Source: an uncultured virus (IMG/VR IMGVR_UViG_3300013936_000024) (Duplodnaviria > Heunggongvirae > Uroviricota > Caudoviricetes). From it: 64,000 nucleotides of DNA. Positions 17,123-64,000 of the stretch are shown one piece after another; the first letter of the stretch is position 1; the number at the start of each line of letters is the position of its first letter. The stretch is taken from the IMG/VR virus record IMGVR_UViG_3300013936_000024; one strand, given 5' to 3'. The notes beneath the pieces were generated by a model that did no database searches, was not told the origin of the DNA, and saw only the letters and a program-made list of their open reading frames with translations. Made by a program: the position numbers and the translations under genes.

Positions 17123-17134
17123 TTATAAATGTAG

Positions 17135-21941: not shown

Positions 21942-21964
21942 ATAGTTATTTAACTATTTTTTTC

Positions 21965-21995: not shown

Positions 21996-22024
21996 TCTTT
22001 TAGTTTATTAGGACTATAAATGTA

Positions 22025-23530: not shown

Positions 23531-23549
23531 ACTATTAAGGATAAATTGA

Positions 23550-24947: not shown

Positions 24948-24950
24948 CAG

Positions 24951-46651: not shown

Positions 46652-46693
46652 ACTTGCAGTAAGATATTTATAATTAAATAATTTTATTTGATA

Positions 46694-49015
46694 ATGATTA
46701 ACGGAATAACATATTTCAGAAAAAATTCTCCTTATAGTGGAGACGTTACGAAAAATTGTGCCCTTGACGGTATCGAGGTGGACAATAATTTCTTTGTCCT
46801 TGAAGGTCGTGACATAAAATCACTAAGAATCGAAGATAGTGACATTGTCATTGAATTGCTAAACGGTGATATTATGCGTTCTGCTGATGCACTAAAGGGT
46901 ATTACAGATTTGCAACAAACCTCAATATCAGACATTGTGTTTGACAAAGAAAATGGAATATTGAAATTCACGAGGAACGGAGAACAAATAGCGATTACAG
47001 GTTTTGCTACTGAAATGAATACAGGTGTTACAGTATCAGTTGACGATAGTCTTAAAGGTAATGGGCTTGCAGCCAATCCTGTATCAATTTCGCCCATGTT
47101 TAAAACAGGACAGTATAGACCAGTCAAAAGACTTATATCCGTGGCTGATGGTGAGAAAATGCCAAATTGCAGCGTTTCTGTTGTCGGTGATAGATACCTT
47201 ACTAAAGAAAATGTAAGTACCTACGGAATGTTATACAATTACAAGGCAGTCAAAAAGATTGCATGTAATTTGCGTGACGCAAATTCTCCTTGGAGAATAC
47301 CGACAAAAGAAGATTGGGATGATATGCTTAACGCTGTCGAACCTTGTCCAAGTGATAGAGAACACAGTTCTGCATCTGCCAACAGATATCTTGGAGAATA
47401 CGCAGGAAAACTATTAAAATCAAAGGATTTATGGTTACATTCAGATGTGACTGACGGTTGTGGTGGAAATGGTACTTGTATTATTTATGATACTAACTGC
47501 GATGCAGTTGCCAATTCATGCGGAGATAATAATTGTGAAAATTCAGACAATGATAATTGCTGTTGTAGTTGTGATTGTGATGGTATACCTACAGATGGTC
47601 TTGATGCATTCGGATTCCGTGTAGTTCCATCAGGTTATGCTGACGATGGGCAAAATTTTGTATTCTTCGGAGAAAGAGCTTATTTCTGGACGGCAACGAA
47701 TTCAAATTGCGAGAGTGTATATGTTAAACGTTTTGAGAACAACAAGAATTCTGTTTATCAAAATGTAATTGCAGGCCAAAATTATCTTTCACTTAGATTA
47801 GTTAAGAATTATAATGGCAATAATTTCCATGAGAGTGAAAATATATTGTCGGATCAATATCCAACAGTACTAATGCCATCTGTAAAGAATGGTCATTCAA
47901 TATGGACTTCCGTCAATATCTCATTAGATTGTGGAAATTGTGGTAGACGAATTGAACCAAATAACGGTTTGGAATTAACTAGTACGACTAAATTTTATTT
48001 GAACGAATGGGATGGTAAAAATTGGCTACGAAACGAATTAAAGGATGGTGAAAGTGTTGTTATTATGAATTCACCTAATGGTCAGACAAATGATGAATAT
48101 CGTTTAAGCAACGGTAAATTAATAAATGTCGGAGAATTTGTAAAAGAGACTGTAAATGGTAATATTAACCCTAAGCTTGATGAATTAAACGCTAAATTAG
48201 AAAATGAGATAAATCGTTCCATTGCTAAGGATACATTAATTGAAGATACAATTAACAATGAATTGAAACCAAAATTGACACAGAATTCGGAAACTATCGA
48301 AACTGTCAATAATAATTTGGTTGCTTCAATAAATACGATAAACGATTCAATCAAGACCGTTAATGATAACTTGGTCGATGCCGTCAACACTATTAATGGC
48401 GGAATTGCAACTGAAATTCAGGAACGAAAGGATGCTGATGAGGAGATTAAGGCTACCGTTACAACAAACAAAGAAGTCTTAGATCAAGAGATTGAAAGAG
48501 CTAAGTCAAAAGAGGAAGAATTGGACAAGGCAATTACAAAAGAAAAACAAGATCGTGAAACTAAAGACACTGAATTAGAAGATAAAATTGAACAGTATAT
48601 AAATACTGGCAATGATGGTTATGCTCAATTGAAAGAACGTGTCGATGCAAACGAAGCCTCAATTGATAATTTGGATAACAGAATTGACACTACAGATTCA
48701 AACCTAAATCATACCAATCAGGTATTAACTGATTTCGGAAAAGAGACAGAAAAGGCATTTGAACAGATTAATAAGGTTATTTCTGATGGTTTCAACACTA
48801 TTAATGGCGGAATTGCAACTGAAATTCAGGAACGAAAGGATGCTGACAACACAGAAAAAGATGAGAGAATCGCTTCTGATAATAAAATTAAGGATGCAAT
48901 ATTAACAGATGAGGGTACTTCATTTGATACTGATAAAGGTATTTTAACTTTAAAGAGCAAGGGTGGTATAAATGACATAAAAGTTCAGTTCTCTATGAAT
49001 TTTGGAGAATTCTAA
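46694..49015 (+). CDS. Tail-fibre-like protein with a FISUMP (Fibrobacter succinogenes major) domain and coiled coil
   Basis: YGMLYNY, WRIPTKEDWDDM, AGKLLKS, FGFRVVPSG, GERAYFWTAT, LSLRLVK. Confidence 0.75.
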   Translation: MINGITYFRKNSPYSGDVTKNCALDGIEVDNNFFVLEGRDIKSLRIEDSDIVIELLNGDIMRSADALKGITDLQQTSISDIVFDKENGILKFTRNGEQIAITGFATEMNTGVTVSVDDSLKGNGLAANPVSISPMFKTGQYRPVKRLISVADGEKMPNCSVSVVGDRYLTKENVSTYGMLYNYKAVKKIACNLRDANSPWRIPTKEDWDDMLNAVEPCPSDREHSSASANRYLGEYAGKLLKSKDLWLHSDVTDGCGGNGTCIIYDTNCDAVANSCGDNNCENSDNDNCCCSCDCDGIPTDGLDAFGFRVVPSGYADDGQNFVFFGERAYFWTATNSNCESVYVKRFENNKNSVYQNVIAGQNYLSLRLVKNYNGNNFHESENILSDQYPTVLMPSVKNGHSIWTSVNISLDCGNCGRRIEPNNGLELTSTTKFYLNEWDGKNWLRNELKDGESVVIMNSPNGQTNDEYRLSNGKLINVGEFVKETVNGNINPKLDELNAKLENEINRSIAKDTLIEDTINNELKPKLTQNSETIETVNNNLVASINTINDSIKTVNDNLVDAVNTINGGIATEIQERKDADEEIKATVTTNKEVLDQEIERAKSKEEELDKAITKEKQDRETKDTELEDKIEQYINTGNDGYAQLKERVDANEASIDNLDNRIDTTDSNLNHTNQVLTDFGKETEKAFEQINKVISDGFNTINGGIATEIQERKDADNTEKDERIASDNKIKDAILTDEGTSFDTDKGILTLKSKGGINDIKVQFSMNFGEF

Positions 49016-49027
49016 TAATATTTATTA

Positions 49028-52000
49028 ATGCGTAATATAAAAGATATGAAAAATAAAGAATATAGTCTTCAACTTTTAACACATAAAAGCGAGATTTTTG
49101 CAACCCGTGAGGATGCAATTGAATATTTCAATGAAAATTTTAGACCGAATTCACTGATTGGAGAACCAGCATTGGCCTTTTACGGAGACCAAAAATCTCC
49201 GAATGCCATTATCGCCATTGGCACGTCTGACAGGAAGATATTCTGCATTGACGCTAATGACTTAGATGAAAGAATTTCGGCAATCTCTAATAGTTCGACG
49301 ACGGAAAAGGAGAATATTTCAAATGCACTTGCGTCAATAAACGAGATAGTCAAGGCTTGCGGATTCGTCGTCGATGAAAACAAGATAAAGGACAAAATTA
49401 CTTATACACCCGATCCAAAAGATAAAGTTATCGGAAACGCTGTATCATTATCTGATGCTGTTACAAGTCTTTCAGACTTCATTCAGCAAGGCTTCAGTGA
49501 CAACGGTATTAAAGTAGAGGACACGAAATCAATCACATTGACTTATTCAGATAGTGCAGATGGGAAAAAAGTACTGAAAGCCAACGTTAAATTGTCCGCA
49601 AGCGGCGATTCTGACAACGTTGATTTTAACAACAACATCATCTGTCAGAAAGAAGACGGACTATACGCAGCTTCTAACCTTGAATATGACGCAGACAAAA
49701 ATGAACTCACATTCACCGCAAGCGGAATTAAAGATGGTAAGTTTCGTGACGACGCATATCGCAAGGTTATCAGCCTTGGCAAACATACTGAATATGTAGC
49801 AGATAATATCGCACATAGCATCGATGTTAAGATTGACTCTGAGAAGCAATCCATCTCAGCCGATGCGAAGTTATCTGAAGATGCCAATAACATATTGGGA
49901 CTGCAAGACGGTAAACTATTCGTTGATGGTCGTGCATCCAACATAAAATATGAAGGCAAGACAGTATATAAAAGTATTAAGGAACTTGAAGCCAAGTCAG
50001 ATACTGTGGAAAAATCCGTAAATGACATAAAAGCGGATATTGATGACTTTAAGAAGAACAGCAAGATACATGGTGACACAACTGATACCGTTGTCGTTAC
50101 GGCGACTGAGGAAGATACGGGGGGATATCACGTGTCGGCAGGTTTGCGTCTTGGAAGTGATAGAACCATCATCGTGAAAAACGGAGGCATTGAGGCCGAT
50201 GTTGAGCTTTCGGCTAACGCCAAGGAAGGTACTCTTTTATTACGTTGCGGTAATCTGACCAAGGTAATTACATTGCCGAATGTTGATATTGTAGAGGATG
50301 CTCACTATGATTCTACGACCAAGAAGCTTGTCATAATATTTAAGAATGATTCACGTGTTGAGATAGACATGCAAGCACTCGTTAAAGAATTTACATTTGT
50401 CGAGACAGGTCCGGTAAGTCTCATTGAGTCTCCTAATGACAGCAACGGTAATAAGGTCAAGGCTGAACTTAAACTCTCTTCTAACGACAACATGCTGTCT
50501 GTCGTCAATAACGAGTTAGTTGCGCCAAAGTCAATAGTAACAGATGCAGTAAAGGCTGAGTCCGACCGTGCTCTTGCTGTAGAGAAAACATTGACTGACG
50601 GCCTTTCTGCTGCTAACAAAGCAATACATGACGAGACAGACAGGGCAACGGCAGCAGAAAGCACTCTTTCAGTTAAGTTGGATAACAACATAGCGACTAC
50701 GACCGCCATTAATTCTGACGTTACAACGTTAAAGACTGAAGTTGTGAACATGAAGGCACAAGACGTTGCTTTAGCTACTGCATTGACTACAGAACAGACA
50801 CGTGCCACTAATGAGGAACAACGTATCGAAAGCTTAGTCAACTCCCACTATAATGAGGCAAATGCACTTCATGACGAAATAAAGACCAATGTCAAAGATT
50901 TGACCAATAAGGTCAATGAAACAAAGCTTGATGTCACCAACGCAAATAATGCGATAGGAAACGAAGCAAGCGAAAGAACAAGGCAGGATGACATAATAAA
51001 GGCGGATGTTGCCGATTTATCCGCCGATATTGCTACGCTTAACGCAAGCGAGGACACACCCTATTCTGTAAGACATATAGTTAAGACAGAATACACTGAC
51101 AATCTAACCCAACTGATAGGTAACGAGACTGACCGTGCAACGCAGAAAGAAAACGAACTTGCCGATAAGATAGAAAAGTTCAGTGCTGAGACTAATGGCA
51201 GTCTTGCTGACGCTCTTTCCGAAGCCAAGACGTACACCAATAATGAAGTCGGAAAACTCAGCACGTCTGTGAATACGAATTTGGAAAAAGCAAAGGTTGA
51301 GGTATCTAAGGCTTTATCAGATGACGCTACAGCAAAGACAACTGCGGCTCTTTCCGAAGCCAAGTCATATACCGATGCAGCAACCGCAACACTGACTGCC
51401 AAGGACACTGAGATTGACAGCAAGATTGCTGAGCTTGTCCAAAAGGACAAAGATACGGATATCGTGTTGTCAACCAAGATAGGCGAAGTTACTGTTGTCA
51501 AAAATAGTCAAAGTGACTTGCAATATACATTGATGGTAGACGGCAAGCCTTCAGGTGAGATAAACATACCTCAAGACCAATTCGTTGACAGTGTTAACTA
51601 TGATGAAACAAATAAACACATCACTTTCGTATTCATCACCAAGACAGGCAATAAGACTGTTGAAATCGACATTTCAGACTTGGTTGACAACTATGTCAAC
51701 GGAGATGGCATATCATTAGATGGAAATAAATTCTCATTGAAGATTGATCCTTCTTCTGAAAGCTATCTTACCGTAAGTGAAAACGGTGTTAAGCTTTCGG
51801 GAATCAATGATGCTTTAAACGTGAAAGCAAATGTTGGTGATTCATATACAAAGACTGAATCTGACAGCCGATACCTGACTGAGCATCAAGATATCTCAAG
51901 TCTTGCGACTAAGATGGAGCTGAATGTAGTTACGGACAATGTGAATCGGTTAGACGAAAAAGTTAATGAGAACATTTCAGCAATTGATATAATCAACGGA

Positions 52001-53524
52001 AATTATGCACAGGAAGGGTCAATCGCCAAGGCTTTGGTAGATGCCAACAGATACACCGACAAAAAGATGGAAGATGAAGCTGTCATTGCACGTGCCGCAG
52101 AGAAGGCGAACGCAGACGCAATAGCTATCATCAACGGTAACGAAGCACAAGAAGGCTCAGTGGCAAATGCGATAAAGACATCAAAAGACTACATCGATTC
52201 TGAGATAAAAACAGTGGAGACTTCCATAGAAACTACCAAGAACGAACTGAAAGGTCAGATAGACAAGAAGGCCAACGCCGACAATGTTTACACCAAGGTG
52301 GAAATCGACACCAAAGGCTTCCTTACGCAGTCGAATATTGACAGTCTTGCCGCCAAAACGGAAGTTGAACAAGAAGCCATACGGGCGAAAGCCTCAGAGA
52401 AGGCGAACGCAGACGCAATAGCATCACTTAATGGGCAAGTGGCATCCAACGCAACTGACATACAGTTGCTTAAGAATGAATCCACAAGGCTTAGCCTGAC
52501 TGCCACGGAAAGCAATTCAGTAAAGACAACTGTAAGCAAGTCCGATACAGGCACTACCATAAATGCAGATGTCAAGCTTAATCTCTCAGGTCAAAACATA
52601 CTGAAATTGGACGGTAATGGCTTGTATGCCAACGTTGAACTCACATACAACAAGGCAACAAATATATTAAGCCTTAATAATGGTATATCAACTACGGACA
52701 TTCAATTATCCAAGCAGTCACTCGTGACCGCAGGGTACTATGATTCCAATACAAAAAGTATTGTATTGGTAATAGCCAAGGACGACGGTACAAGCGAGAA
52801 AATCTCGATACCCGTAGGCGACCTCATGAACGCATGGAACGTAGAGAACAACGATAAGAACCCTATCAAGCTTGCTAAGTCACCTGACGCTAACGGCGTA
52901 GACACCCTTACAGCAAGATTGGATATCTCTACTGAAAGTCATAATGCAATACTGAACGACAACGGTACGCTCTACGCATCTAACGAGGCATCGAAGCTCA
53001 CGGCTTTATGGGGCGGCACGGAAGTGACCATTCAAAAGGCTATCGAAGACCTTAAAACACAGACTGACAAGGTCGGAGGCATGTCTGTCGATATCGACAC
53101 GTTGAAATCAGACGTACAGCAGTCGAAAACAGACATATCCAACTTACGGTCTTCTGTTGACAGTATCAACAGCAAGGTTGAACAAAACGTTAAGGATATC
53201 GGGTCTAATAAGGGAGCAATCGACACGTTAAAAGGTCAGATCATCAACTTAAGCTCAGATGTTACCAACCTATCGAGCAGCTTTAATGAACTGTCAAACA
53301 GCTTCAAGCAGCTTTCTGATAAAGTTGATGCTCAAGAGGAAAGAGTTAGCACTCTCGAAGCTGACATGAAGAATGTTAAGAACGACTTGCTTGCTATAGG
53401 AACTAAAGTCAATAACATTCAGAATCAACTCGGTACACCTGAGGAAGAACAGTCAAGTGTGTATGACAGACTTAAAAATATCGAAAAAGCCTTGAGCGAT
53501 TTGATTGATTTTGGAAAATACTAA
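49028..53524 (+). CDS. Long tail fibre / coiled-coil fibre protein
   Basis: 1498 aa; repeats E.DRA..AE..L and N.L....DGLY; extended heptad regions. Confidence 0.7.
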   Translation: MRNIKDMKNKEYSLQLLTHKSEIFATREDAIEYFNENFRPNSLIGEPALAFYGDQKSPNAIIAIGTSDRKIFCIDANDLDERISAISNSSTTEKENISNALASINEIVKACGFVVDENKIKDKITYTPDPKDKVIGNAVSLSDAVTSLSDFIQQGFSDNGIKVEDTKSITLTYSDSADGKKVLKANVKLSASGDSDNVDFNNNIICQKEDGLYAASNLEYDADKNELTFTASGIKDGKFRDDAYRKVISLGKHTEYVADNIAHSIDVKIDSEKQSISADAKLSEDANNILGLQDGKLFVDGRASNIKYEGKTVYKSIKELEAKSDTVEKSVNDIKADIDDFKKNSKIHGDTTDTVVVTATEEDTGGYHVSAGLRLGSDRTIIVKNGGIEADVELSANAKEGTLLLRCGNLTKVITLPNVDIVEDAHYDSTTKKLVIIFKNDSRVEIDMQALVKEFTFVETGPVSLIESPNDSNGNKVKAELKLSSNDNMLSVVNNELVAPKSIVTDAVKAESDRALAVEKTLTDGLSAANKAIHDETDRATAAESTLSVKLDNNIATTTAINSDVTTLKTEVVNMKAQDVALATALTTEQTRATNEEQRIESLVNSHYNEANALHDEIKTNVKDLTNKVNETKLDVTNANNAIGNEASERTRQDDIIKADVADLSADIATLNASEDTPYSVRHIVKTEYTDNLTQLIGNETDRATQKENELADKIEKFSAETNGSLADALSEAKTYTNNEVGKLSTSVNTNLEKAKVEVSKALSDDATAKTTAALSEAKSYTDAATATLTAKDTEIDSKIAELVQKDKDTDIVLSTKIGEVTVVKNSQSDLQYTLMVDGKPSGEINIPQDQFVDSVNYDETNKHITFVFITKTGNKTVEIDISDLVDNYVNGDGISLDGNKFSLKIDPSSESYLTVSENGVKLSGINDALNVKANVGDSYTKTESDSRYLTEHQDISSLATKMELNVVTDNVNRLDEKVNENISAIDIINGNYAQEGSIAKALVDANRYTDKKMEDEAVIARAAEKANADAIAIINGNEAQEGSVANAIKTSKDYIDSEIKTVETSIETTKNELKGQIDKKANADNVYTKVEIDTKGFLTQSNIDSLAAKTEVEQEAIRAKASEKANADAIASLNGQVASNATDIQLLKNESTRLSLTATESNSVKTTVSKSDTGTTINADVKLNLSGQNILKLDGNGLYANVELTYNKATNILSLNNGISTTDIQLSKQSLVTAGYYDSNTKSIVLVIAKDDGTSEKISIPVGDLMNAWNVENNDKNPIKLAKSPDANGVDTLTARLDISTESHNAILNDNGTLYASNEASKLTALWGGTEVTIQKAIEDLKTQTDKVGGMSVDIDTLKSDVQQSKTDISNLRSSVDSINSKVEQNVKDIGSNKGAIDTLKGQIINLSSDVTNLSSSFNELSNSFKQLSDKVDAQEERVSTLEADMKNVKNDLLAIGTKVNNIQNQLGTPEEEQSSVYDRLKNIEKALSDLIDFGKY

Positions 53525-53592
53525 AGATATTTATAATTGACGGCAATACAAACCGTCAATTATAAAGGATAATAAATTAATTAATTAATATT

Positions 53593-55083
53593 ATGGGTAT
53601 ATCAGATTTTAACAAAAAAATTCTACAAATTTTAAGAAATACCGAAATGGTTGCCGACCGTGCAGCTGCTATCGCAAAGATAGAAGGTATGAAGGAAGCC
53701 AAACGTGACGGTGAACTCATAGCTTGCCGTTATACTAAAGGAGATACCGTTAAGGCAATTATCGGTGTTGTAACTAAAGTAGGTGGCAAGGATGCTATCG
53801 TTACATATTTCGAAGGCATTAATAACGGCGAAACAATTCCTGATGTCATCAAAGCCTCTCTTGACAATCTGACGACTGAAGTCAATTCCATAGAGCAAGG
53901 TGCAGGTCTTGAAGACAACGGAAGCTATAAAGCTGATGCCGCTGACAATATACTAAAGACCTCGACATCACTAAAAGATGCCGACAGTAAGTTGTCTGAT
54001 GCAATTGAGAAACTTCAGTCTAACGTTGAGATAAAGAAATATGCTAATAAGGTTAGTCAAGAATTGCAGGACGCTAACTACACAAGTGCTCAAGCTGACG
54101 TATATAACGTACTCCACACCAATGAAGATGGTACTGACGAGAAAGTCGATGACTTCCAACTCACATATACGCCCCTCTCGCCTATGGACTTGAAAGTTCC
54201 TGCGACAATGGGTGACATCACACAGGGTACAAAGGCAAGTGAACTGAAAGGTAAACCATTGTCTGAAATCCTTGACAGCATCATTTTCAAGACTATCTAC
54301 CCGACTGTTACCGACCCATCAGCAAGCATATCGTTCAAAGGATTCAATAACAACGGTTTGGTTGAAGTTGGTGCAACTGCACCAAAAGTGGCAGACAATT
54401 TCACAACGTCACTTTATAAGGGTAAGGTAGAGGTGAAAGACGGAGTAACCGCAACTACCGACTACGTGGGAAATGCGTCAGCAACGACAGTCAAAATGAC
54501 ATATGTGCCTTATGCGGCTAACGCCAATGCCGGTACAACCTCTGACGGTAGCGCAAAAAATGACGTAACGGAATTCGATGAAAAGTTCGGTCTCGGTAAA
54601 TATACATATAGGGTTACTATTGACTACGTGCAAGGTTCTGTAATGAGGACATCAAAGGGCGCAACACCTAATCCAATGCCAACAACCAATAAGGGTAATG
54701 TTGCCAATCCTCATGCGGCCGGAAACGTTACAAGTGGCATAGTCACTTTGAACGCCACGCTGCCTATATTCGCTACGACTAACACTACTACCAATACCTC
54801 AAAGCAGGGTCTTATCGCTTGGGGGGCAATGACATTCGCACCTTCTGCAAAATGGCCTGCGACTACAGCCTCTGCGCCGCTCGTAATTGAGACTCCAAGA
54901 AAGATAAACACTTTCTACGCATACAATGAAGTTTCAGGCAAGTTTGACGTTAACGTTAAAAGTAGTCTGTCCTCACCGGTCGAGATAAACAAGACTTTCG
55001 GTGACAAACAGTATAAATATTTCCAATATAAATGGGTCGGCGGAGCTGCTGATTCAAAGAGATATCAGGTAGTTACATTCTAA
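53593..55083 (+). CDS. Tail-fibre-associated protein
   Basis: 496 aa; TSLKDADSKL motif; T/G-rich beta C-terminus. Confidence 0.55.
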   Translation: MGISDFNKKILQILRNTEMVADRAAAIAKIEGMKEAKRDGELIACRYTKGDTVKAIIGVVTKVGGKDAIVTYFEGINNGETIPDVIKASLDNLTTEVNSIEQGAGLEDNGSYKADAADNILKTSTSLKDADSKLSDAIEKLQSNVEIKKYANKVSQELQDANYTSAQADVYNVLHTNEDGTDEKVDDFQLTYTPLSPMDLKVPATMGDITQGTKASELKGKPLSEILDSIIFKTIYPTVTDPSASISFKGFNNNGLVEVGATAPKVADNFTTSLYKGKVEVKDGVTATTDYVGNASATTVKMTYVPYAANANAGTTSDGSAKNDVTEFDEKFGLGKYTYRVTIDYVQGSVMRTSKGATPNPMPTTNKGNVANPHAAGNVTSGIVTLNATLPIFATTNTTTNTSKQGLIAWGAMTFAPSAKWPATTASAPLVIETPRKINTFYAYNEVSGKFDVNVKSSLSSPVEINKTFGDKQYKYFQYKWVGGAADSKRYQVVTF

Positions 55084-55114
55084 ATAAACAATTTAAACGA
55101 AAGAAATTTATAGC

Positions 55115-56623
55115 ATGGCTAGTATAAAATTTACAAATCCGATTGCTCTCCCGGCTCCTTTTAAAGCCGGTTCTTGTGACCCTGTCGATCCAAGACAAGT
55201 AGTTGAGACCAAAGATGACATGGTTAAGAACTGTGCTGATACATTCGGTACTGTCGGAGATTATTGCCTTATTGCACTTGGACTGCATGTGTATGTTGAG
55301 ACAGAAAAAGCCGAATACATGTATGTAGGCCCTTATTCAAAAGGAAATGGTATTCTCACCACTGAAGCACAAAAAGAATCTAATTGGCGTAAAGTTTCTG
55401 ACGCTAATTCATCAGCCGACCACGTAACAGACAAACTGCAAGACTTACAAAGCCAAATCGGTACAGGCTTCGACGAGACTAATACAGTCAAAAAAGCCAT
55501 CGAGGACGAGAAAGCCGCAAGAAAAACTGCGATAGAAGCATTAGACAAGGAGGATGTTGCCGTAAAGGGTCAGTTCGTTGATTCAGTCAGCGAGACCGAC
55601 GGAGTTATTACCGTCAGCCGTAAGTCCATTACTTCAAATGACAAGTCAGTAACTCTGAATACCAATAACGGAGTTGACGTAAGTGTGAACATCGACGGCA
55701 CTACCATCGTACGCAACGAAAACTCGGGTAAGCTAAGCGTAGCAAGCGAAGCGATAGTACAATATGTCGGCGCAGAGTCAGTTAAGGTCTCGGACGTTAA
55801 CAAGGAAACCAATACAAAGACAATCTCACTCGCGATCGATAATGACGATGTACTGTCACAGTCTGATAAAGGCATAAAATCGTCTATAAAACTCGTTGAG
55901 CTTACTGCCGACGAACTTAAAGCCCTAGGTGAGACAAACGTCAAGACTGCATATAAATTGGTTGGTAAAGATGGTACTACAGCAAAGGGCGCACTTGTCA
56001 AGATAAACAAAGACCAGACTCTGAAGAGTGTTAAATATGAAAATCAGATACTTACTTTCACATACACACTTGCAGATGGCACTGACAGTGTAGTGGAAGT
56101 TAGCATGTCTGACCTTATCCAAGAAAAAGAAATGGGTGATGGTATAGAATTGGTCGATCACAAGGTTACTGCCAAGATTGATGCCAAAAGCGAGAATTAC
56201 TTGACTGTAAGTGCAGACGGTCTTAAAGTAAGTGGTGTCGATGATGCAATAGATGCTGAGACAGAACGTGCCAAGGGTGTCGAGGGAGAACTTACCGCAT
56301 CAGTTAACACAGTCGAGGCAAGCGTAGGCTTGGCTGAAAATGGCGACCACGTTACAACAAAGGGCAATTACACAAATCAGGCTACGACTGTCGTTGGTGA
56401 GATTGCCGCACTTGACGCACAGGTTAAGAAGAACTCTGACGCTATTGCCAAGAACCACGTCGAGGCTGCTGACGAAAGTGTCGTAGTCGATAACTCTGCC
56501 ACAAACAAGACTACCATAAAGGTACAGTTCGCCGCTGCCAAAGAAGGAAACGCAAATGACTTGTTCACCATTGAAAGCGGAGGCATCACAATGTCTAATG
56601 TTTGGGACTGCGGAACATATTAA
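55115..56623 (+). CDS. Tail-fibre-associated protein
   Basis: 502 aa; shares GDGI.L....KID..SE.YLTVS..G.K.SG with 49028..53524; ends DCGTY. Confidence 0.6.
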   Translation: MASIKFTNPIALPAPFKAGSCDPVDPRQVVETKDDMVKNCADTFGTVGDYCLIALGLHVYVETEKAEYMYVGPYSKGNGILTTEAQKESNWRKVSDANSSADHVTDKLQDLQSQIGTGFDETNTVKKAIEDEKAARKTAIEALDKEDVAVKGQFVDSVSETDGVITVSRKSITSNDKSVTLNTNNGVDVSVNIDGTTIVRNENSGKLSVASEAIVQYVGAESVKVSDVNKETNTKTISLAIDNDDVLSQSDKGIKSSIKLVELTADELKALGETNVKTAYKLVGKDGTTAKGALVKINKDQTLKSVKYENQILTFTYTLADGTDSVVEVSMSDLIQEKEMGDGIELVDHKVTAKIDAKSENYLTVSADGLKVSGVDDAIDAETERAKGVEGELTASVNTVEASVGLAENGDHVTTKGNYTNQATTVVGEIAALDAQVKKNSDAIAKNHVEAADESVVVDNSATNKTTIKVQFAAAKEGNANDLFTIESGGITMSNVWDCGTY

Positions 56624-56661
56624 TTGAAAACAACAACAAAAACAAAACGGACATAGTTGCT

Positions 56662-56706
56662 AAGAACCTCGTACAGGATGTTTTCCCGTACGGGGTTCTG
56701 TTTTTC
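56662..56706. terminator. Bidirectional terminator between the fibre operon and the polymerase C-half
   Basis: AGAACCTCGTAC...GTACGGGGTTCT followed by a T run. Confidence 0.75.
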
Positions 56707-56710
56707 TTGT

Positions 56711-58366
56711 CTATTCTGCCATTTCGTCTTCTTCTACCTCGTTGTTCTTTGTGAAATCCTTGTCAACAATATCGAAGATGCTTCCAATTTTCACTTTGTA
56801 TTTCTTTGAGACGAAATCGCCATTGTTTATATTCTCATCTATCAGTCTCAGCAACTTTTCGGGAAGCACCCCCTCTTCAAGTACCTTATCGACATCTTCT
56901 CTTTTAAGAGACGCTATACAATTATCATAAGATTCTTTTTCTTCACGAATCCCTTCTTTCTCCAACTCTTTCTGACGGTCAAGATAATTTTGCTTTATCT
57001 TTCCCCAATCCATTCCACATTCCTTTGTATACGGAGGCACTTTATTGTTTTCTATCCAGAATTTTATCTCCTTATCCTCGATGGTCATCAATTGCTCATA
57101 TGTATCTTGGTCGATTGTCTCATATGGCTGTCCTGCAACGAGTTGACTTTCGTTCTCCGTAAATTCCTTTCTATCCTTTGGGGAAGTTATTAGTATGTTA
57201 TTTATTGTCTTGCCTTTTTCATTGACAGTGTAACGAATTTTTTCGTTAAAGCACACAAGCAGAGGTTTAATACGTTTATTAAACATATCGATATATTTCT
57301 CTTTGTTATACTCAATGTCGTCTGAACAGAAGTGATCGTCCTCATCCTCGACAATATCATTAGGTAATCTAACACAATTAAAAATGATAACATCCTTATC
57401 CTTTATTGATGGATATGCCTTGTGTATATAATCATCTTTTGATATGTATTTTTTCTTAGAATTTGGTGGAGTTAACACAATAGGGTCATTGGCTTTTTTA
57501 AGACGGTTGTATTCACTTTCCAATCCTTTTGACAGAGACACAATATTTCCTTTACGGTCAGTCTTAGGAGTGCCATCTTCATTGGTCATGTAATCGATTT
57601 CTTTCCCATCTCTTCCGTCAAAATAGTACTTAGTAACTCTTTGTACATCAGACACCGATTTCTTGTCACCTGTGTTAATATAATAGATAGTGTCACCCAT
57701 ATTGACTGACAAGTTATCACGTATGGCTAATTCATACCAAGCTTGTCTTGCTTTCTTTGTACCACCAGCAGTTAACTGCTTGCAACTTTCCTTATATGTC
57801 TCGATGGAGGTTTTTATTTTGCCAACAGTCGCAATATCTTTCAAAGGAATTTGCATATTATAAATTTTCTCAATATAATCATAATAATAGTTAAGAAAAT
57901 CAGAACCCTTGCCGTGCAATAGCATATCAATGGCATTATTAAGAAACTTCTCAATATATATCGGCATCTTTTTTGATTTGATAGTGTTGCCTACCAGTTT
58001 CTTAGAACCATCAGGCATTAAATCAGCGTAATTTTTACGAGCGAATTGGATACAAGCGTCACAATACTCATCGATTCCTAAACCGTTCTTTAATACTCCT
58101 CCATTGTATGCTTCATTAATAAATGTATCCTCGAATTCAGCAACATCGGCGTCGACCTCGGTGTATTCTTTTCCTTTCTTGACATTACGGCCGAGTCCCT
58201 TACCTATATAAGGATGCTCTTTTGTATAACGATATTTTAACGGTTTTTGGAAGTTGAACCCATCAGTATTACTTAATACGTTCATTCCCAATGCATTAAC
58301 AACAGTTCCATCTAATGAAATGTCGTATACATAATCATCTGTTTTGCCTAATTTTGTTATTTTCAT
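56711..58366 (-). CDS. DNA polymerase B, C-terminal half preceded by the split intein C-fragment
   Basis: 33 aa IntC (VYDISLDG..VNALGMNVLSN) then TDGF, RKNYA and a thumb region. Confidence 0.9.
   Translation of the reverse strand: MKITKLGKTDDYVYDISLDGTVVNALGMNVLSNTDGFNFQKPLKYRYTKEHPYIGKGLGRNVKKGKEYTEVDADVAEFEDTFINEAYNGGVLKNGLGIDEYCDACIQFARKNYADLMPDGSKKLVGNTIKSKKMPIYIEKFLNNAIDMLLHGKGSDFLNYYYDYIEKIYNMQIPLKDIATVGKIKTSIETYKESCKQLTAGGTKKARQAWYELAIRDNLSVNMGDTIYYINTGDKKSVSDVQRVTKYYFDGRDGKEIDYMTNEDGTPKTDRKGNIVSLSKGLESEYNRLKKANDPIVLTPPNSKKKYISKDDYIHKAYPSIKDKDVIIFNCVRLPNDIVEDEDDHFCSDDIEYNKEKYIDMFNKRIKPLLVCFNEKIRYTVNEKGKTINNILITSPKDRKEFTENESQLVAGQPYETIDQDTYEQLMTIEDKEIKFWIENNKVPPYTKECGMDWGKIKQNYLDRQKELEKEGIREEKESYDNCIASLKREDVDKVLEEGVLPEKLLRLIDENINNGDFVSKKYKVKIGSIFDIVDKDFTKNNEVEEDEMAE
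58268..58366 (-). other. Split intein C-fragment (IntC, 33 aa)
   Basis: Block F YVYDISL; terminal S-N followed by Thr+1. Confidence 0.88.
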
Positions 58367-58376
58367 ATTTAAATTA

Positions 58377-59174
58377 TTACCTTAAACTAAAATCGTTTTT
58401 ATTAATACCATTTAATATGTAATTCTCGTCATAATTAACATTATTAATATACATTATAGGTAAATTATGTTCTTTACAAAGTTTTTGCTTCGTCTTATCT
58501 CTTTCTTTTATTATTTTAAACTCTTGTAACGCCCATTCTTTTCCTCGTCCTGCGAAATCGACTGGTTCATAATGTTGTCGTCCTTGGCATTCAATCGCAA
58601 TATGATAATCGGTCAAATAAAAATCTAAATATAAATTTATTTTATATTTAAGCCAAGTGAATGTTTTTTCTCTAACATAAGCTATGTTGTTATTATCTAA
58701 TAGGCTACAAAGATTTTTTTCCATCTTACTTTGTATTCTTCTGCCATTGCGACATTGTATACAGCCTCCATCCTTTGACGTAATGTGGTCACAGGCAATT
58801 TTATGAAATAAATTTCCGCATCTTTTACATTTAATAGTTATAATAGAATGGCTATTTTCGTATTCATTTCTAATATTAGGATAGCAAAATAGGTCGTCAA
58901 ACCTTTCATTAGTTATACTCAAAAAATGAATATAATTATTTTTTCTGAACGTCTTTGCATATTCTTTACCGCATATAGGACAACCTTGTCCTTTTAAATG
59001 ATTTTTAGGTGTTTGTGAAAAAATGCCATGAATAGGACATAGAATGTCCACTTTTGTTGTTTTATTTATAAAGTAAACATTATTATATCCGTATTTCCCT
59101 TTATGGACGATTGTTGCATTATTTTTAAATTCTTCTTCTCTTTCTTTTCTTTTTAATTCATTCATTCTATACAA
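58377..59174 (-). CDS. Homing-type endonuclease (Zn-ribbon + Vsr/PD-(D/E)xK-like)
   Basis: CPIHGIFSQTPKNHLKGQGCPIC; LDFYLTDYHIAIECQGRQHY; RDKTKQKLC. Confidence 0.75.
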   Translation of the reverse strand: MYRMNELKRKEREEEFKNNATIVHKGKYGYNNVYFINKTTKVDILCPIHGIFSQTPKNHLKGQGCPICGKEYAKTFRKNNYIHFLSITNERFDDLFCYPNIRNEYENSHSIITIKCKRCGNLFHKIACDHITSKDGGCIQCRNGRRIQSKMEKNLCSLLDNNNIAYVREKTFTWLKYKINLYLDFYLTDYHIAIECQGRQHYEPVDFAGRGKEWALQEFKIIKERDKTKQKLCKEHNLPIMYINNVNYDENYILNGINKNDFSLR

Positions 59175-59259
59175 TTTGTGTAATTGTTTAATACACTGAA
59201 GTTATCGACAAAGTTACCGTTTATTTTCGTATTTACCAAGAATATTATACTAAAATCGG

Positions 59260-60669
59260 TTAAAACTCTATTTTTTTCTTCCATTCGTATACAGAATTTC
59301 CGCTATCGAATATCCTATATGTCTCTTTTTCTATATCGATTATCTTCAAATATCGATGTCTATTAGCGACATAATAATAATTTGGTTCGGTATTTTTTAA
59401 GAACTTAAAACCGATATTTTTAAACTCATTTCCATTATCCCATCGTCTATCAATCTTGACTATAACAACGATAGGATTATTTTCATTCACGAAAAAATTA
59501 AAAAGTCCTTTTACACCATTTATTACCTTTGTATTTAGTCTATTGCAATATGTGACTAATTCATATTCGTCATCAGTTATTTTATTAAATCCTAACAACG
59601 AGACCAATTCATTTTTATAAAAATTACCATATACTATTTGAGGATTAACGATATTATAAATTGAATTTGTTTTTAAAAAATCAATACATTGTTTCGGAGA
59701 TAACTTTTTAATAACACATAGTTCAGAGGAAATCTTATTTGGTACATTGTCTGTTATTTCTCTTATTTTAGATTTAACAATATCTTTCTTAAATACCCAT
59801 TCGTCTTCAAAAATATGCAGTAGTCGTATTCCTTGCTTAATACAATCTTCTGTCTTTTTCAAATGGTAGTGATTATTTTTACAATATTCTTCACTATGCC
59901 ATATTAAGCCATCGTGTTCTATTGCGATGTTTTTAGACGGAATATATATGTCAATTTCCTTGCCATCTGTCAATATTTTACGATTATTCTTAATAACTTC
60001 GAGACCAAGTTCATTTTCGATGAAATCTGATATTTCATTTTCTTGAGTTGAGACAACATTGGAACAATAAGGACAACCGTGACCGCATAGATGCTTGTTT
60101 GGCATTTGCCAATAATGATGACCATTGGCACATATTATTTCAATTGGAATCTTTGCCCCTTTGTATTCCGCAAGGCTATAATCCTCGGTATTTTTATGAA
60201 TAATATTGGCTTTTTTGACGAACACCTCTTTTGTCATCAACATATTATTAGCGTTCTGTTCGGTAGCGCATTTAGGGCAGCCGTGACCTTGTAGATGTGA
60301 ATATGCCTTCTGAGTGAAAATCCCGTGCTTTGGACAAATAATGTCAACGTCTTTAGTTGCTCCTTGATATACTGTTATTGTATAACGATATTTAAAGTTG
60401 TGGACAATATTTGCCTTAGTAATAAATTGTTCGTTTGTAAACGATTGAGTTTTTGCCATATTTCGTTTTCCACATTTCGGACACCCGCAACCTTTTAAGT
60501 GACTATACATATTTTGCAGAAAATCTCCATGTATGGGGCATGTTATTGTTACTCGTCTTTTAGTATCTTTTTTCGAGATATCTGTTTTTGTATAGTCGTA
60601 ATAATCTCCGAATATATCTCTTGCTTTACTTTTAAATTCATCAGTCGATTTAATGACAGTTTTATACAT
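59260..60669 (-). CDS. Hef-like homing endonuclease
   Basis: Three Zn-ribbon repeats; EIDIYIPSKNIAIEHDGLIWH; IDRRW; RIFDSG. Confidence 0.75.
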   Translation of the reverse strand: MYKTVIKSTDEFKSKARDIFGDYYDYTKTDISKKDTKRRVTITCPIHGDFLQNMYSHLKGCGCPKCGKRNMAKTQSFTNEQFITKANIVHNFKYRYTITVYQGATKDVDIICPKHGIFTQKAYSHLQGHGCPKCATEQNANNMLMTKEVFVKKANIIHKNTEDYSLAEYKGAKIPIEIICANGHHYWQMPNKHLCGHGCPYCSNVVSTQENEISDFIENELGLEVIKNNRKILTDGKEIDIYIPSKNIAIEHDGLIWHSEEYCKNNHYHLKKTEDCIKQGIRLLHIFEDEWVFKKDIVKSKIREITDNVPNKISSELCVIKKLSPKQCIDFLKTNSIYNIVNPQIVYGNFYKNELVSLLGFNKITDDEYELVTYCNRLNTKVINGVKGLFNFFVNENNPIVVIVKIDRRWDNGNEFKNIGFKFLKNTEPNYYYVANRHRYLKIIDIEKETYRIFDSGNSVYEWKKKIEF

Positions 60670-60744
60670 TGTTATTTCTTATTAAGATAGAACAAATGAT
60701 TCTACCGAGACAAATTATCTGATAGAATCATTTATATGACTACA

Positions 60745-61311
60745 TTATAAAAAGTTAAATCCCGCTACAAATACCTTTGAATAGTTTTCAATTGTTATTT
60801 GTTTATCTAATCTCTTGCACAGTTCACTTGCAAATCGCTTTCTTATATTTACTTCACAATTTAAAACTTCGATAGGTATCTTCATTGGGAATTTTACTGT
60901 GAAGTCTAATAATTTATTAAATTTCTCTTTTGTTATTTTTTTATCTCTTTTACAGAAAGGCTCTGATTTGTATTCTAATACCGTGTTTTTATTAATCTCG
61001 GATGGCTTTACCTTTTCTTTATTTTCATCAAACAACGAATGGTCTTCGGTTATGTCACTGACACAGGTCTTACTATTTCGTTTATCCATGACACGGTACA
61101 TATCTTTGCCCGTCTTGTGACGATATATGTAGCTTGGTTTATACCATCCACTTCGACATAAGACAGTATAATTTTTCTCAGTCGTATCGTATTCTCTACC
61201 TAACGCATCCTTGCGTATGTTATCAATATCTATTAATTCAGATATAGGTTTGATGTCAATCAAATTTGTATTATCATATTTGATAAACATAGGTGTATCA
61301 CCAGTAAAACT
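60745..61311 (-). other. Split intein N-fragment (IntN, 188 aa)
   Basis: Block A SFTGDTPMFI directly after VGD; block B ITEDHSLF. Confidence 0.88.
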
Positions 61312-63288
61312 GTCACCTACAATAGGATGATAATTGTATTCGTCATTAGGCGTATTAGTATTAAAACTTCCCAATGTGGAAAAATGGCTAATCATAAGAC
61401 GAAGCATTTGTCGACCACGGCAAGTTGTTTCCTCCGCACATTCCAAATCAGACCAAGGGAACACACTTCCAGAACCGTATGATCCGAAGAAGCCATTGCC
61501 TGTTATCTTTAGAGGAAGTTGCATTTTGTCTGCCATCGCCTTTTGGCTTGATAACTGCGCTATCTTGACCTTTGTCTCCTTAATTTCATTCTCATCTGTA
61601 ATACCCTTTAATTTTTCTTTAAGTTCATCTGCCTCTTTACCATATTTGGCTTTCAGACCCTTATAATGTTCACGTTGTGTAAGAATATACTCCAAAAGGG
61701 CATTCATTACACCCATAATATCGATTGGACTCTTGATACCGAAAGTAAGAATAATCGAAGGATATAGTGAATTATAATCCAATTTAACGATTCTATCCAC
61801 ATATCCGACTTTCAATAATCGTGACAATCCTCCTGTAAATTTCTTGGTTTCAATCAATTCAGGAATAGCCAGATCATGTTGATAACTCCACGCCATCATA
61901 ATGTATTTCCATATTGCAGCAGTACCCATTGTACACATTTTCTCATATGATACTGGGAGCATTTTACCTACCAAGAAATTAGGTTGATTATAACGGTTTT
62001 CTACCTTATCTGTCTCCCAAAGGTCATCCAACAGATAACGCTGAATTATATAGCGTCCTGTCGTTATTTCATACTCCTTACCTGTTTTATTATTAATTAA
62101 TTTTTTATCTTCACGGGTGTACAGAGGAAACGTTCCATTATCATCAGTATAAGTCTTTTCAAGACGTTTATCATCTATCTTAAACCATTCGCCATCGGTA
62201 TCATTAAATGCATATGTAGGTGTCAAGTCCAACCACGTTGTATTAATTTCTTTGCCTGGTACATATACACGATTAGGCTTATTCATCTTTGAGTAGGCGC
62301 AGATATATTTAAGGGTTGCCTTTTTCATATTAGAATCGATTGCTTGCGCTCTACGAACGGCGAACAATGCATCAACGATATTATGACCCCACATTATAGT
62401 AGGATAATAATACTCCATTTCGCCACCAAGTTTCAATACTTGTTGTTTCTTTTTCTTATATATCCCACGATTATAGAAAATTTTCTTGGTGAAATCCAAC
62501 AACGAGCTTCCGTGGAGCTTTAATCGTTCATCAATAAAATACCAGTCGAAGTTCTCAGTATTATATCCTGCAATAATATCAGGTTGTTCATTATATATGA
62601 TTTCAAAAAATTCCTTGAGACCGATTATCTCATTTTTGAACTTTTCTTCACCTTCGCCATCGATGGTAATGATTTTTTCAAATCCCTTGTTTGTTCGTAT
62701 ACCAATCTGTGAAATCGCATGTATCTGTGGATTAAGACCCTCGGTCTCCAAGTCGAATGACATACGAATAAGGTCATCGTAATCATCATATCCCTTAAAC
62801 ATTCGTCGACCTGTATAAATCATATATTGCTCTGTAGGTGCTACCGCAATAAATTCACGAAGTCCGTAATTAGCATCGGTCTGTTGCGGATATATTGGTC
62901 TACCAGCTTCCTTGAAAAAGTCCATGAATTTCTTATAGGACATCGCAAATTTCGCATAGAACAATACCCTATATCCATTCTCCATTCTTGGGTGGATGTT
63001 TCCCTCATCGTCGGCGACACGTAATCCTTTACAAGTAATACCGTACATCGCCATTTTCTCCCTCAGAATCTTTCTGTCGCCATCGAAAAGCTTTCGGGCT
63101 GCACTTTGTTTGCACCATACAAAAGGATAAAAATTATCCTTTAACATTTTCAACTTATTATTTTTTCCCCGAAAGATGACAGTCATTTTATCATCGTCAT
63201 AAGACCCTTCTATCTTTATAATATGTTCCATCGGGTCTGTACCTGAGAGGAATTTATCGATATCCTCTTTTGTAATGTTATTTGCCAT
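60745..63288 (-). CDS. DNA polymerase B, N-terminal half followed by the split intein N-fragment
   Basis: Exo I FDLET, Exo II GYNTENFD, Exo III YLLDD, motif A DYNSLYPS, motif B KITGNGFFG, then VGD|SFTGDTP. Confidence 0.92.
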   Translation of the reverse strand: MANNITKEDIDKFLSGTDPMEHIIKIEGSYDDDKMTVIFRGKNNKLKMLKDNFYPFVWCKQSAARKLFDGDRKILREKMAMYGITCKGLRVADDEGNIHPRMENGYRVLFYAKFAMSYKKFMDFFKEAGRPIYPQQTDANYGLREFIAVAPTEQYMIYTGRRMFKGYDDYDDLIRMSFDLETEGLNPQIHAISQIGIRTNKGFEKIITIDGEGEEKFKNEIIGLKEFFEIIYNEQPDIIAGYNTENFDWYFIDERLKLHGSSLLDFTKKIFYNRGIYKKKKQQVLKLGGEMEYYYPTIMWGHNIVDALFAVRRAQAIDSNMKKATLKYICAYSKMNKPNRVYVPGKEINTTWLDLTPTYAFNDTDGEWFKIDDKRLEKTYTDDNGTFPLYTREDKKLINNKTGKEYEITTGRYIIQRYLLDDLWETDKVENRYNQPNFLVGKMLPVSYEKMCTMGTAAIWKYIMMAWSYQHDLAIPELIETKKFTGGLSRLLKVGYVDRIVKLDYNSLYPSIILTFGIKSPIDIMGVMNALLEYILTQREHYKGLKAKYGKEADELKEKLKGITDENEIKETKVKIAQLSSQKAMADKMQLPLKITGNGFFGSYGSGSVFPWSDLECAEETTCRGRQMLRLMISHFSTLGSFNTNTPNDEYNYHPIVGDSFTGDTPMFIKYDNTNLIDIKPISELIDIDNIRKDALGREYDTTEKNYTVLCRSGWYKPSYIYRHKTGKDMYRVMDKRNSKTCVSDITEDHSLFDENKEKVKPSEINKNTVLEYKSEPFCKRDKKITKEKFNKLLDFTVKFPMKIPIEVLNCEVNIRKRFASELCKRLDKQITIENYSKVFVAGFNFL

Positions 63289-63329
63289 TTCTAATCCTTT
63301 AAATTAAACATACTCTGTAGTTAAGCCAC

Positions 63330-63367
63330 AAAAATAGCGGCATCATACAAGATGTGCCGCAAATATA
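63330..63367 (-). promoter_or_regulatory. Terminator-like hairpin abutting a Bacteroidota -7 element upstream of the polymerase
   Basis: Minus strand TATATTTG, then GCGGCACATC..GATGCCGC-TATTTTT. Confidence 0.5.
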
Positions 63368-63401
63368 CAACTTTTAAATCAAACTTTATAAGAATATCGT
63401 A

Positions 63402-63800
63402 TTAATTTGTGTTAATCATTGAATTATTAATATTTATTATCAATTCCTCGGCAATTGGGACTATCAATTCGCCTTTTGGGAAACTATATTCTTCACTGTG
63501 TATGTCATCATTGAAAACTATTTTGAAAGTACCGACAAAACGTCCTTCCATTTTTGTATCTCTTGGTTTCCAAGAATACCTTAGTTTAACACGTTCTTCA
63601 CAACCAATAGTATAAGTAATGATTTTGCATTTGGCATTCGATATTACTTTTATACCATTGTTTAGATTGGCCATCGTGAAGTATACATCGGCATTTTGTA
63701 AGGCATAATATGCCTTTCTGTAATCATTTCGACCGTCTTGTATTAGTTCCATTTCCAAGTAAGGAAGCGTGGAGTTTTTATTTATATTAAATTCTTGCAT
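63402..63800 (-). CDS. BppU-like (baseplate upper) Ig-like protein
   Basis: INKNSTLPYL..ADVYFTM...YSWKPRDT..EGRFVGTFKIVF. Confidence 0.55.
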   Translation of the reverse strand: MQEFNINKNSTLPYLEMELIQDGRNDYRKAYYALQNADVYFTMANLNNGIKVISNAKCKIITYTIGCEERVKLRYSWKPRDTKMEGRFVGTFKIVFNDDIHSEEYSFPKGELIVPIAEELIININNSMINTN

Positions 63801-63812
63801 CGTTTATATCAT

Positions 63813-64000
63813 CTAATTTCGTAATTCTTTTCTCTTGAAATCAATTATCGCCTTGTTATCATATAGGAAATCACAACCTAATATTCCATCGATTTGCTTT
63901 CCCGTCTTTATGAAGACTTCTCTTTTGACATTGTCAATATCAGTTATATAAAAAGTAACCGGTATACTGTCATTCAATAACGTGTTTGTTACAATAACCC
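63813..64000 (-). CDS. Retropepsin-like aspartyl protease, C-terminal part (partial)
   Basis: Manual translation ...GKQIDGILGCDFLYDNKAIIDFKRKELRN*; DGILGxDFL..IDF motif; absent from the ORF track because it is cut by the window edge. Confidence 0.7.
   Translation of the reverse strand, partial: VIVTNTLLNDSIPVTFYITDIDNVKREVFIKTGKQIDGILGCDFLYDNKAIIDFKRKELRN

Follow-up and report, generated by a model that had tools for sequence, protein, structure and literature searches.

Fractured genes, as described by Dassa et al. in 2009, are same-strand open reading frames (ORFs) carrying the halves of a split intein around a free-standing, often Vsr-like homing endonuclease gene (HEG); that paper places them mainly in phage-like DNA and explains them by a gene-breaking model in which an endonuclease invades an intein (PMC2677866). 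We analyzed a 64,000-nucleotide stretch of an uncultured tailed virus (IMG/VR record IMGVR_UViG_3300013936_000024; this whole stretch is called the window below), in which a family-B DNA polymerase (PolB) gene is interrupted in the same manner: its N-half ends in an N-terminal intein half (IntN), its C-half begins with a C-terminal one (IntC), and endonuclease genes lie between them. The evidence given below indicates that this is very probably a fractured PolB gene of a large tailed phage, reassembled by split-intein trans-splicing. The host genes named by Dassa et al. include gp41, NrdA, NrdJ, IMPDH, DnaE, terminase and ligase, with active-site residues that include Cys1, and their IntN measure 88-105 aa (PMC2677866); other characterized natural IntN have 115-120 aa (PMC12707363, PMC11923092). 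The window differs from them in an IntN of 188 aa and in having two endonuclease genes in tandem.

The arrangement belongs to a published class, the split, cysteine-free PolB inteins with an endonuclease gene between the halves (Aes123, PTm1, MIJ3); cysteine-free refers here to the junction nucleophiles only, the window's IntN holding five cysteines, of which C52 is nearly invariant. Naturally split PolB inteins starting with serine (Ser1) have been characterized in Aes123 PolB1, CP21, LCGC14, GOM-OPS-1 and PolB16 OarG (PMC12707363, PMC10189870, PMC11923092), the last being a sheep-gut intein that follows ..GDTD (PMC10189870). In Aes123, one of the T4-like Aeromonas salmonicida phages (JN377899.1), the PolB gene lies in pieces and the intein starts with Ser1 within motif C, as in the window; the annotation of gp43B1 reads 'includes putative N-intein' and that of gp43B2 'includes putative C-intein', the gene in the gap between them is given as 'putative VSR endonuclease', and trans-splicing was shown experimentally (PMC11923092). 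It differs from the window in its insertion point two residues downstream (..YIDTD/S and ..VHN/S with Ser+1, versus ..VGD/S and ..SN/TDG with Thr+1; a slash marks the splice junction throughout), in an IntN of 120 aa without an endonuclease stump, and in a penultimate His. Tenacibaculum phage PTm1 (AP019524.1), a cultured 224-kb jumbo phage of Bacteroidota, presents the same gene order ('intein-containing split DNA polymerase precursor', 'VSR endonuclease', 'DNA polymerase') but has an IntN of about 120 aa by coordinates and a PolB further split upstream. The Pseudomonas jumbo phages MIJ3/PA5oct have a split PolB intein, whose halves in MIJ3 are described as flanking a gene for an HNH endonuclease; the published block G ends ..VHNS (PMC6892783).

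Two contiguous PolB inteins are also close. Salicola phage SCTP-2 (MF360958.1) carries a mini-intein at exactly the window's site (..YGD/S...KN/TDS) and shares with the window Ser1, Thr+1, the ..YIYRHKT.. and ..VTEDHS.. motifs and the lack of a penultimate His, with weak similarity to the window's IntN (42% over 49 aa, E 0.2). PI-PkoII / PI-TkoII of Thermococcus kodakarensis PolB has Ser1 like the window, but is contiguous, 537 aa long and bears an active endonuclease. We take PI-PkoII to lie at the identical position of motif C. PI-PkoII is cited as Ser1/Ser+1(Thr+1) in the text of PMC10189870. When the window was compared with 50,697 phage records, megablast gave no match, and tblastn with the IntN at E <= 1 matched only SCTP-2 and not Aes123. 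With the SCTP-2 intein, in turn, tblastn reached 45 phage records, among them those of MIJ3/PA5oct, the Aes phages, CP21, PTm1 and the Lak phages, so that the window is linked to Aes123 only through SCTP-2 as intermediate. The window's endonucleases are not BLAST-similar to the 'VSR endonucleases' of the Aes123 and PTm1 gaps. The locus is of interest for its retained IntN stump, its Ser-Asn/Thr+1 junction, two endonuclease genes in tandem together with a cassette swap, and a complete series of alleles at one site.

The intein halves in PolB motif C

The N-half reads ...YNYHPIVGD, then SFTGDTPMFIKY...ITEDHSLF..., and stops 188 aa past the D; the C-half, whose ATG lies 2378 nt from the N-half stop codon, opens with MKITKLGKTDDYVYDISLDGTVVNALGMNVLSN (33 aa) and continues as TDGFNFQKPL. 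The break after ...HPIVGD (aa 659) followed by SFTGDTP...ITEDHSLF, and a C-half about 2.4 kb downstream with 33 aa ending VLSN before TDGF, are therefore as the preliminary description gave them, on the minus strand of 56711..63288, where four ORFs lie in a row with spacers of 75, 85 and 10 nt. Pfam located DNA_pol_B_exo1 (4.5e-12) and DNA_pol_B (4.1e-11) within residues 170-659 of the N-half, DNA_pol_B ending at 659, and PHROG 262 (DNA polymerase) matched the N-half at 2.9e-71. A profile search of the N-half against the PDB returned archaeal PolB structures, with solely PolB among the 60 of 97 matches listed, and is uninformative for the intein part because the alignment contained whole N-halves. 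The C-extein matched the 'DNA polymerase elongation subunit' of a Salinibacter phage (tblastn 4e-8).

An uninterrupted PolB homolog (P0007, 1179 aa, 84% identical) reads ...NDEYNYHPIVGD/TDGFNFQKPLKY at this site, within the longer stretch NDEYNYHPIVGDTDGFNFQKPLKY. Its junction IVGD/TDGF equals that of the joined window exteins, the 24 residues around it being identical. The joined exteins (659 + 518 = 1177 aa) aligned to it at 82.8% identity over 1176 columns, and no gap comes closer to the junction than hundreds of columns. The earlier claim that joining yields a 1177-aa protein with VGD-TDG restored thus holds against a natural intein-free allele: the excision at VGD/TDG is exact, and P0007 lacks the 188 + 33 codons as well as the gap. 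Among the best 120 N-half and the best 120 C-half relatives listed, S-F/V-x-x-D-T-P stood directly after VGD in 119 N-halves, the remaining one being P0007, and ...N/TDGF was present in all 120 C-halves. Intein-free sites were common elsewhere: 74 of 80 loci in a first sample of viral-contig relatives (23 flagged by script and 51 read by eye as ..V[ML]D/TDG), and, in a second sample, 45 of the 72 loci in which both exteins were present (37 with a gap of exactly 0 and eight with ends of high-scoring segment pairs leaving -36 to +91 nt).

The same site is occupied by a contiguous intein in a more distant PolB (L009, 1300 aa, 41% identical), whose 359-aa insert S...AHN/TDGF passed the Pfam models Intein_splicing (6.8e-11, scoring 42.6 bits where 35.8 is the cut-off) and LAGLIDADG_3 (1.4e-10) and had PI-PkoII as best PDB match (5.7e-7). 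Aligned from the first residues, the window's IntN is 39% identical to the N-part of this intein over 117 aa (E 1e-18), and the IntC is 59% identical to its C-end over 32 aa (E 3e-8). Another contiguous homolog, P0284, also passed Intein_splicing. Residues S1, F2, D5, T6, P7, E40, R64, H65, T88, D90 and H91 were invariant in the IntN and 49 diverse relatives; in 22 C-halves, V13, Y14, D15, I16, S17, L18, G20, V22 and N33 were invariant (V13-L18 forming block F), as were T34, D35, G36, F37, N38 and F39 at the junction with the C-extein. The NX motif, a signature of Ser1 inteins, consists of a His with Arg/Lys before it and a conserved Glu located in a preceding strand (PMC10189870); by our own assignment from the alignment, E40 would be the partner Glu of R64-H65. 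The penultimate IntC residue in the 120 C-half relatives listed was Ser in 116 (one on a truncated protein), Cys in three and His in one. A '..VCSSM..' variant of the IntC was also seen among these relatives, and in no IMG/VR locus returned.

An AlphaFold2 model of the IntN alone had a predicted local distance difference test score (pLDDT) of 90.1 and a predicted template modelling score of 0.80. The nine top-ranked Foldseek rows for it were all inteins (best E 4.2e-3), and VIA-align superposed it on more than 20 inteins, and also on a hedgehog Hint domain (Z 7-10.1). The predicted complex of the IntN with the first 45 residues of the C-half, for which our own alignments were supplied, reached an interface score (ipSAE) of 0.87 versus 0.48 for the best control, with runs agreeing in at least 91% of contacts and a partner pLDDT of at least 74; the mark for this score is reached by 116 of 157 solved complexes and by 2 of 215 mismatched pairs. 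The naturally split intein in motif C put forward in the preliminary description is supported by P0007, the contiguous L009 intein, the invariant splicing residues and the predicted HINT fold, and the two fragments are best described as halves of a class 1 split intein within PolB motif C.

The long tail of IntN

The 188 aa had been described as intein blocks A and B. Both blocks are present, but only about 110-120 aa are HINT, the last ~70-80 aa forming a separate helical stump. In the AlphaFold2 model the tail consists of helices 128-140, 147-150, 154-167 and 179-187 (pLDDT 92-98). Mini-inteins aligned to model residues 1..120 only (Z 7-9.4), whereas only endonuclease-bearing inteins spanned 1..188: PI-PkoII (Z 10.1), PI-PfuI (9.5) and TliVMA (9.5). 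PI-PkoII (PDB 2cw7; root-mean-square deviation 4.1, 180 aligned, chain 1..408) was the best structural match of the whole model.

The sequence relatives point in the same direction. A search of 1.84 billion representatives with the IntN gave 482 clusters at E <= 1e-3 (65 at <= 1e-10 and 18 at <= 1e-30), among them contiguous PolB inteins of 241-264 aa (P0284, P0289 and P0277) whose degenerate middle region aligns to the tail. In P0277 the site matching the first tail helix still resembles a LAGLIDADG motif; the same search gave P0270, a contiguous mini-intein of 188-189 aa ending ..LSN/TDG. In a profile comparison with hhalign, the tail fell on the segment leading into the second LAGLIDADG motif of the L009 intein (P 3e-4, probability 40%). 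The tail itself had no Pfam LAGLIDADG match, shows helices only in the model, and has no Asp/Glu-Gly pattern at the motif ends. We read it as what is left of a LAGLIDADG domain after loss of the beta saddles, namely its two degenerate helices and one that trails them, and regard it as a stump and not a member of the LAGLIDADG family.

The stump is retained across the clade: the IntN measured 175-192 aa in 17 split loci, whether the gap held 0, 1, 2 or more genes, and in 50 sequences N151 and K179 of the tail were invariant and A183 nearly so. In the complex model, tail residues 174 and 179-187 contact IntC residues 25-26 of the nearly invariant N-A-L-G. Tentatively, and with the odds rather against it, the stump might be a domesticated third element, acting either as a clamp on the IntC that packs on the N-A-L-G turn or as a solubility/anti-aggregation module for an otherwise disordered IntN. 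If true, this would be a naturally optimized Ser1/Thr+1, His-less split intein, unlike the IntN fragments of 88-123 aa characterized so far.

Gap genes and the alleles at the site

The coordinates of all features are collected in Table 1. Both gap ORFs match PHROG endonuclease families, in agreement with the free-standing endonucleases that the preliminary description noted for known fractured phage genes. HEG1 matched PHROG 559 (9.2e-88) and PHROG 3339 'homing endonuclease' (1e-56), with DUF723 (1e-9), DUF4379 (1.8e-8) and a weak REase MTES_1575 (0.003) in Pfam; HEG2 matched PHROG 559 (5.6e-41), PHROG 9084 'homing endonuclease' (4.8e-19) and PHROG 7140 'intron encoded nuclease'. The zinc-ribbon repeats of Pfam (DUF723, DUF4379) were found in both ORFs, and HEG2 had a weak match to the Vsr-type DUF559 (0.011). 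Searched by sequence, neither endonuclease had a meaningful match in the PDB or any match in NCBIfam. The AlphaFold2 model of HEG2 (pLDDT 90.0) is Vsr-like: Foldseek ranked E. coli Vsr best (1cw0, E 7.1e-4; 1vsr, 8e-4; both prob 1.00), and the catalytic domain of I-Bth0305I (3r3p) was found with prob 0.99. Residues D184, E195, G198, Q200 and H201 were invariant in 30 HEG2 homologs. HEG1 and HEG2 share PHROG 559 and 28.6% identity over 189 aa, and HEG1 is 76% identical to the first gap ORF of the relative L001. In fractured genes, control elements such as hairpins and promoters may come in with the endonuclease. A consensus scan of the gap counted 47 promoter-like sites, little more than the 36.5 +/- 6.5 of shuffled sequences; no minus-strand terminators were found by scan, nor any notable repeats.

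Table 1 Features of the fractured PolB locus (positions are those of the window)
Feature	Coordinates	Strand	Description
PolB N-half ORF	60745..63288	minus	847 aa
PolB N-extein, aa 1-659	61312..63288	minus	exonuclease domain, and polymerase domain as far as the first motif C Asp (...HPIVGD)
IntN HINT part, intein residues 1-~120	60952..61311	minus	Ser1, block A SFTGDTP, R64-H65, T88-E-D-H91
IntN tail, intein residues ~121-188	60748..60951	minus	helical stump ending ...YSKVFVAGFNFL; stop codon 60745..60747
Homing endonuclease gene 1 (HEG1), 469 aa	59260..60669	minus	repeated zinc ribbons, nuclease core and C-terminal domain
Homing endonuclease gene 2 (HEG2), 265 aa	58377..59174	minus	Vsr-like nuclease fold
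Variable cassette (HEG2 and first IntC codons)	58365..59208		no blastn match in L013 (G001) or L004
PolB C-half ORF	56711..58366	minus	551 aa
IntC, 33 aa	58268..58366	minus	blocks F and G (...YVYDISLDG...NVLSN); own ATG 10 nt past HEG2 stop
PolB C-extein, 518 aa	56711..58267	minus	from T+1-D-G-F on, with the second motif C Asp, then palm/thumb

Part of the gap has been exchanged between nearly identical genomes. Against L013 (G001) and L004, the window was 99.9% identical by blastn over 64000..59209 and 99.0-99.7% over 58364..56000. Between these blocks, L013 and L004 carry a replacement of about 1 kb with a different 326-aa endonuclease of the same family, its ORF overlapping the C-half start, and their IntC starts METNNIGKTN, where the window has MKITKLGKTD. 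This cassette difference between 99.9%-identical genomes shows recent mobility, and its pattern is what would be expected from co-conversion during homing.

Three paralogs of the HEG family lie elsewhere in the window, at 6033..7502 (+), 11320..12168 (-) and 22025..23530 (+) (phrog_559, 1.4e-119 to 6e-37). They are found next to the gene for the large terminase and after that for the major head protein, with 30-40% identity to HEG1 and less to HEG2; the phage is heavily colonized by this family. The regions 12128..25910 and 46688..56623 constitute a structural module with large terminase, portal, head maturation protease and major head protein (PHROG 1e-36 to 3e-66), as well as large ORFs (775, 1498, 496 and 502 aa) having little or no PHROG match. 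The nearest record, G001 (the same as L013), has 148,777 bases and an estimated completeness of 41%, so the source phage is probably of jumbo size.

An insertion was present in 27 of the 72 loci of the second sample; the gaps of nine fit a contiguous intein and 18 are split. The contiguous form was verified in L109 (355 aa), L137 (347 aa), L143 (358 aa) and L146 (358 aa), and the other five share the 1074-nt gap of L143/L146 and were classed by gap length. Of the split loci, 17 were characterized (L099, with the gap length of L098, was left out): 14 have one or more ORFs of the HEG family in the gap, and three have no ORF of at least 80 aa there, namely L113 (spacer of 164 nt), L117 (25 nt) and L112 (1814 nt). 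L113 and L117 represent an endonuclease-free split stage.

Two loci have unusual features. In L134:9001-9103 the IntC ends ..NVLKQ/TDGF, with Gln replacing the terminal Asn, and the 5.6-kb gap of L103:3391-8998 holds two HEG-family ORFs and others, including an opposite-strand 436-aa ORF not matching the endonuclease queries. One candidate for a PolB with a full intein (P0320, 1582 aa) was rejected, its Pfam domains being those of a type II topoisomerase (GyrB/TOPRIM/GyrA-like). This topoisomerase carries a related 399-aa Ser1 LAGLIDADG intein, also followed by TDGF, and the window's intein lineage thus seems to occupy a second host gene.

The series fits the gene-breaking model of Dassa et al. 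(2009). The site would first have held an ancestral contiguous intein of the Ser1/Thr+1 type that contained a LAGLIDADG endonuclease, a form still present in related phages. After decay of its LAGLIDADG domain, the gene would have been broken once, inside the LAGLIDADG remnant; all split members of the clade share this break point, which suggests that the split occurred once, in an ancestor, and that endonuclease genes were gained, exchanged and lost afterwards. Free-standing Vsr-like HEGs would then have occupied the gap, where they would keep turning over, while the helical remnant of ~70-80 aa would have stayed on the IntN under purifying selection.

Reassembly of the polymerase and alternative readings

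With both halves on one strand and the short spacers given above, the halves are probably co-transcribed. The N-half would be translated as the N-extein plus the 188-aa IntN and the C-half as the 33-aa IntC plus the C-extein, whereupon IntN and IntC would associate into a class-1 HINT fold. The N-O acyl shift at Ser1 would be aided by the block B Thr/His and the Arg-His NX motif; Thr+1 would attack the ester, and the terminal Asn would cyclize. The expected product is a 1177-aa PolB with motif C (..VGD-TDG..) restored. Since each of the two polypeptides carries one of the catalytic Asp of motif C, polymerase activity probably depends on splicing, and we infer, as did the preliminary description, that the replicase would form only by trans-splicing.

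The divergence of the locus from L001 and L003 indicates that its parts are maintained. The non-synonymous divergence (dN) was 0.04 in the N-extein; within the IntN, the core gave 0.12 and the tail 0.12-0.16. The C-extein has an amino acid identity of 88%. Synonymous sites are saturated (proportion of synonymous differences 0.65-0.86 overall and 0.79-0.86 in the IntN; synonymous divergence of the N-extein about 1.5), so that exact ratios of dN to synonymous divergence (dN/dS) are not derivable from them. By these comparisons all parts are under purifying selection. The layout is real and probably functional.

Several points weigh against reassembly by splicing. Searched alone with Pfam at E 10, IntN, IntC and C-extein matched no intein or Hint family, so the intein models that the preliminary description had proposed to run on both fragments gave nothing (an RWD match at 0.11 was dismissed as chance), and the intein identity rests on homologs, motifs and predicted fold. 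The Foldseek E-values of the IntN model are weak, none being <= 0.001, and the score of the predicted complex may reflect likeness to solved split inteins, since such structures exist. The listed sequencing runs containing the stretch are four DNA runs of one study (shares 0.12-0.15), with no RNA run among them. The Ser in place of the usual penultimate His may affect the splicing rate; inteins without this His can splice.

A further point comes from a single IMG/VR contig, L005, whose PolB is 53% identical. At L005:12119-12260 the IntC ORF ends ...NILHN-TDG and is followed by a stop: 11 nt stand where relatives have one Phe codon, supplying the stop and a new ATG, and the C-extein (MNFKQPP...) is a separate ORF in another frame. 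If real, this intein would ligate no more than a tripeptide, leaving the polymerase as two chains; the lineage may then tolerate an unjoined C-part. No second contig with this stop/restart junction was found among the viral-contig relatives of the L005 C-extein, and the junction may be an assembly error.

Were the intein halves merely a non-splicing clasp holding the PolB chains together non-covalently, the absence of the penultimate His from 119 of the 120 C-halves listed and the seemingly separate translation of the L005 C-extein from its IntC would find an explanation. The fragmented NrdA of phage Aeh1 reportedly assembles non-covalently via such a clasp. In the locus studied here, however, S1, the R-H NX motif, T..H, the block F D, the terminal N and T+1 are all present and invariant, and a dead clasp would not keep all these catalytic residues; moreover, an unexcised intein of ~220 aa would separate the two catalytic Asp of motif C. 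We consider this reading unlikely.

Less probable still, by our estimate, is a decaying polymerase gene, broken by the insertion of an endonuclease gene in a phage that relies on another polymerase. The genome at hand is partial (see above) and a second polymerase is possible. Against decay, the ORFs of both halves are intact and purifying selection on them is strong (see the N-extein dN and C-extein identity above), no frameshifts or stops were seen in the halves of close relatives, nor any dN/dS near 1, and the split form recurs in 119 of the 120 best relatives listed, on contigs of up to 384 kb. Repair at the RNA level, with the 2.4-kb gap removed as a group I/II intron or bypassed in translation, we regard as very improbable: homing endonucleases of Vsr-like fold also live in group I introns, as PMC2677866 notes, but a scan of both strands of 56000..64000 gave no Rfam match at E <= 1, and the 221 codons bearing the intein motifs are missing, along with the gap, from the intein-free allele. 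Were just the gap removed, a stop codon and an ATG out of context would remain.

Reassembly by trans-splicing thus remains the favored reading of the locus, and of the refuting observations listed in the preliminary description, none that can be looked for in silico was made. The preliminary description had also suggested that the non-cysteine junctions could be useful for protein engineering. Ser1, Ser-Asn and Thr+1 were found as described, but the idea is less new than it appeared, Ser1 split PolB inteins having already been characterized. Natural split inteins without a cysteine nucleophile are few, and PMC12707363 counts only one highly efficient one reported before its own; the present clade offers hundreds of Ser1/Thr+1 variants with a different insertion point and a long IntN. 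The locus of the window leaves the existing understanding of how such systems work unchanged. What it adds is a series at one site that illustrates the 2009 gene-breaking model: an intein-free allele, a contiguous LAGLIDADG intein, a contiguous intein with decayed domain, a split intein without a gap gene, a split intein with one to several endonuclease genes and, finally, a cassette swap between 99.9%-identical genomes.

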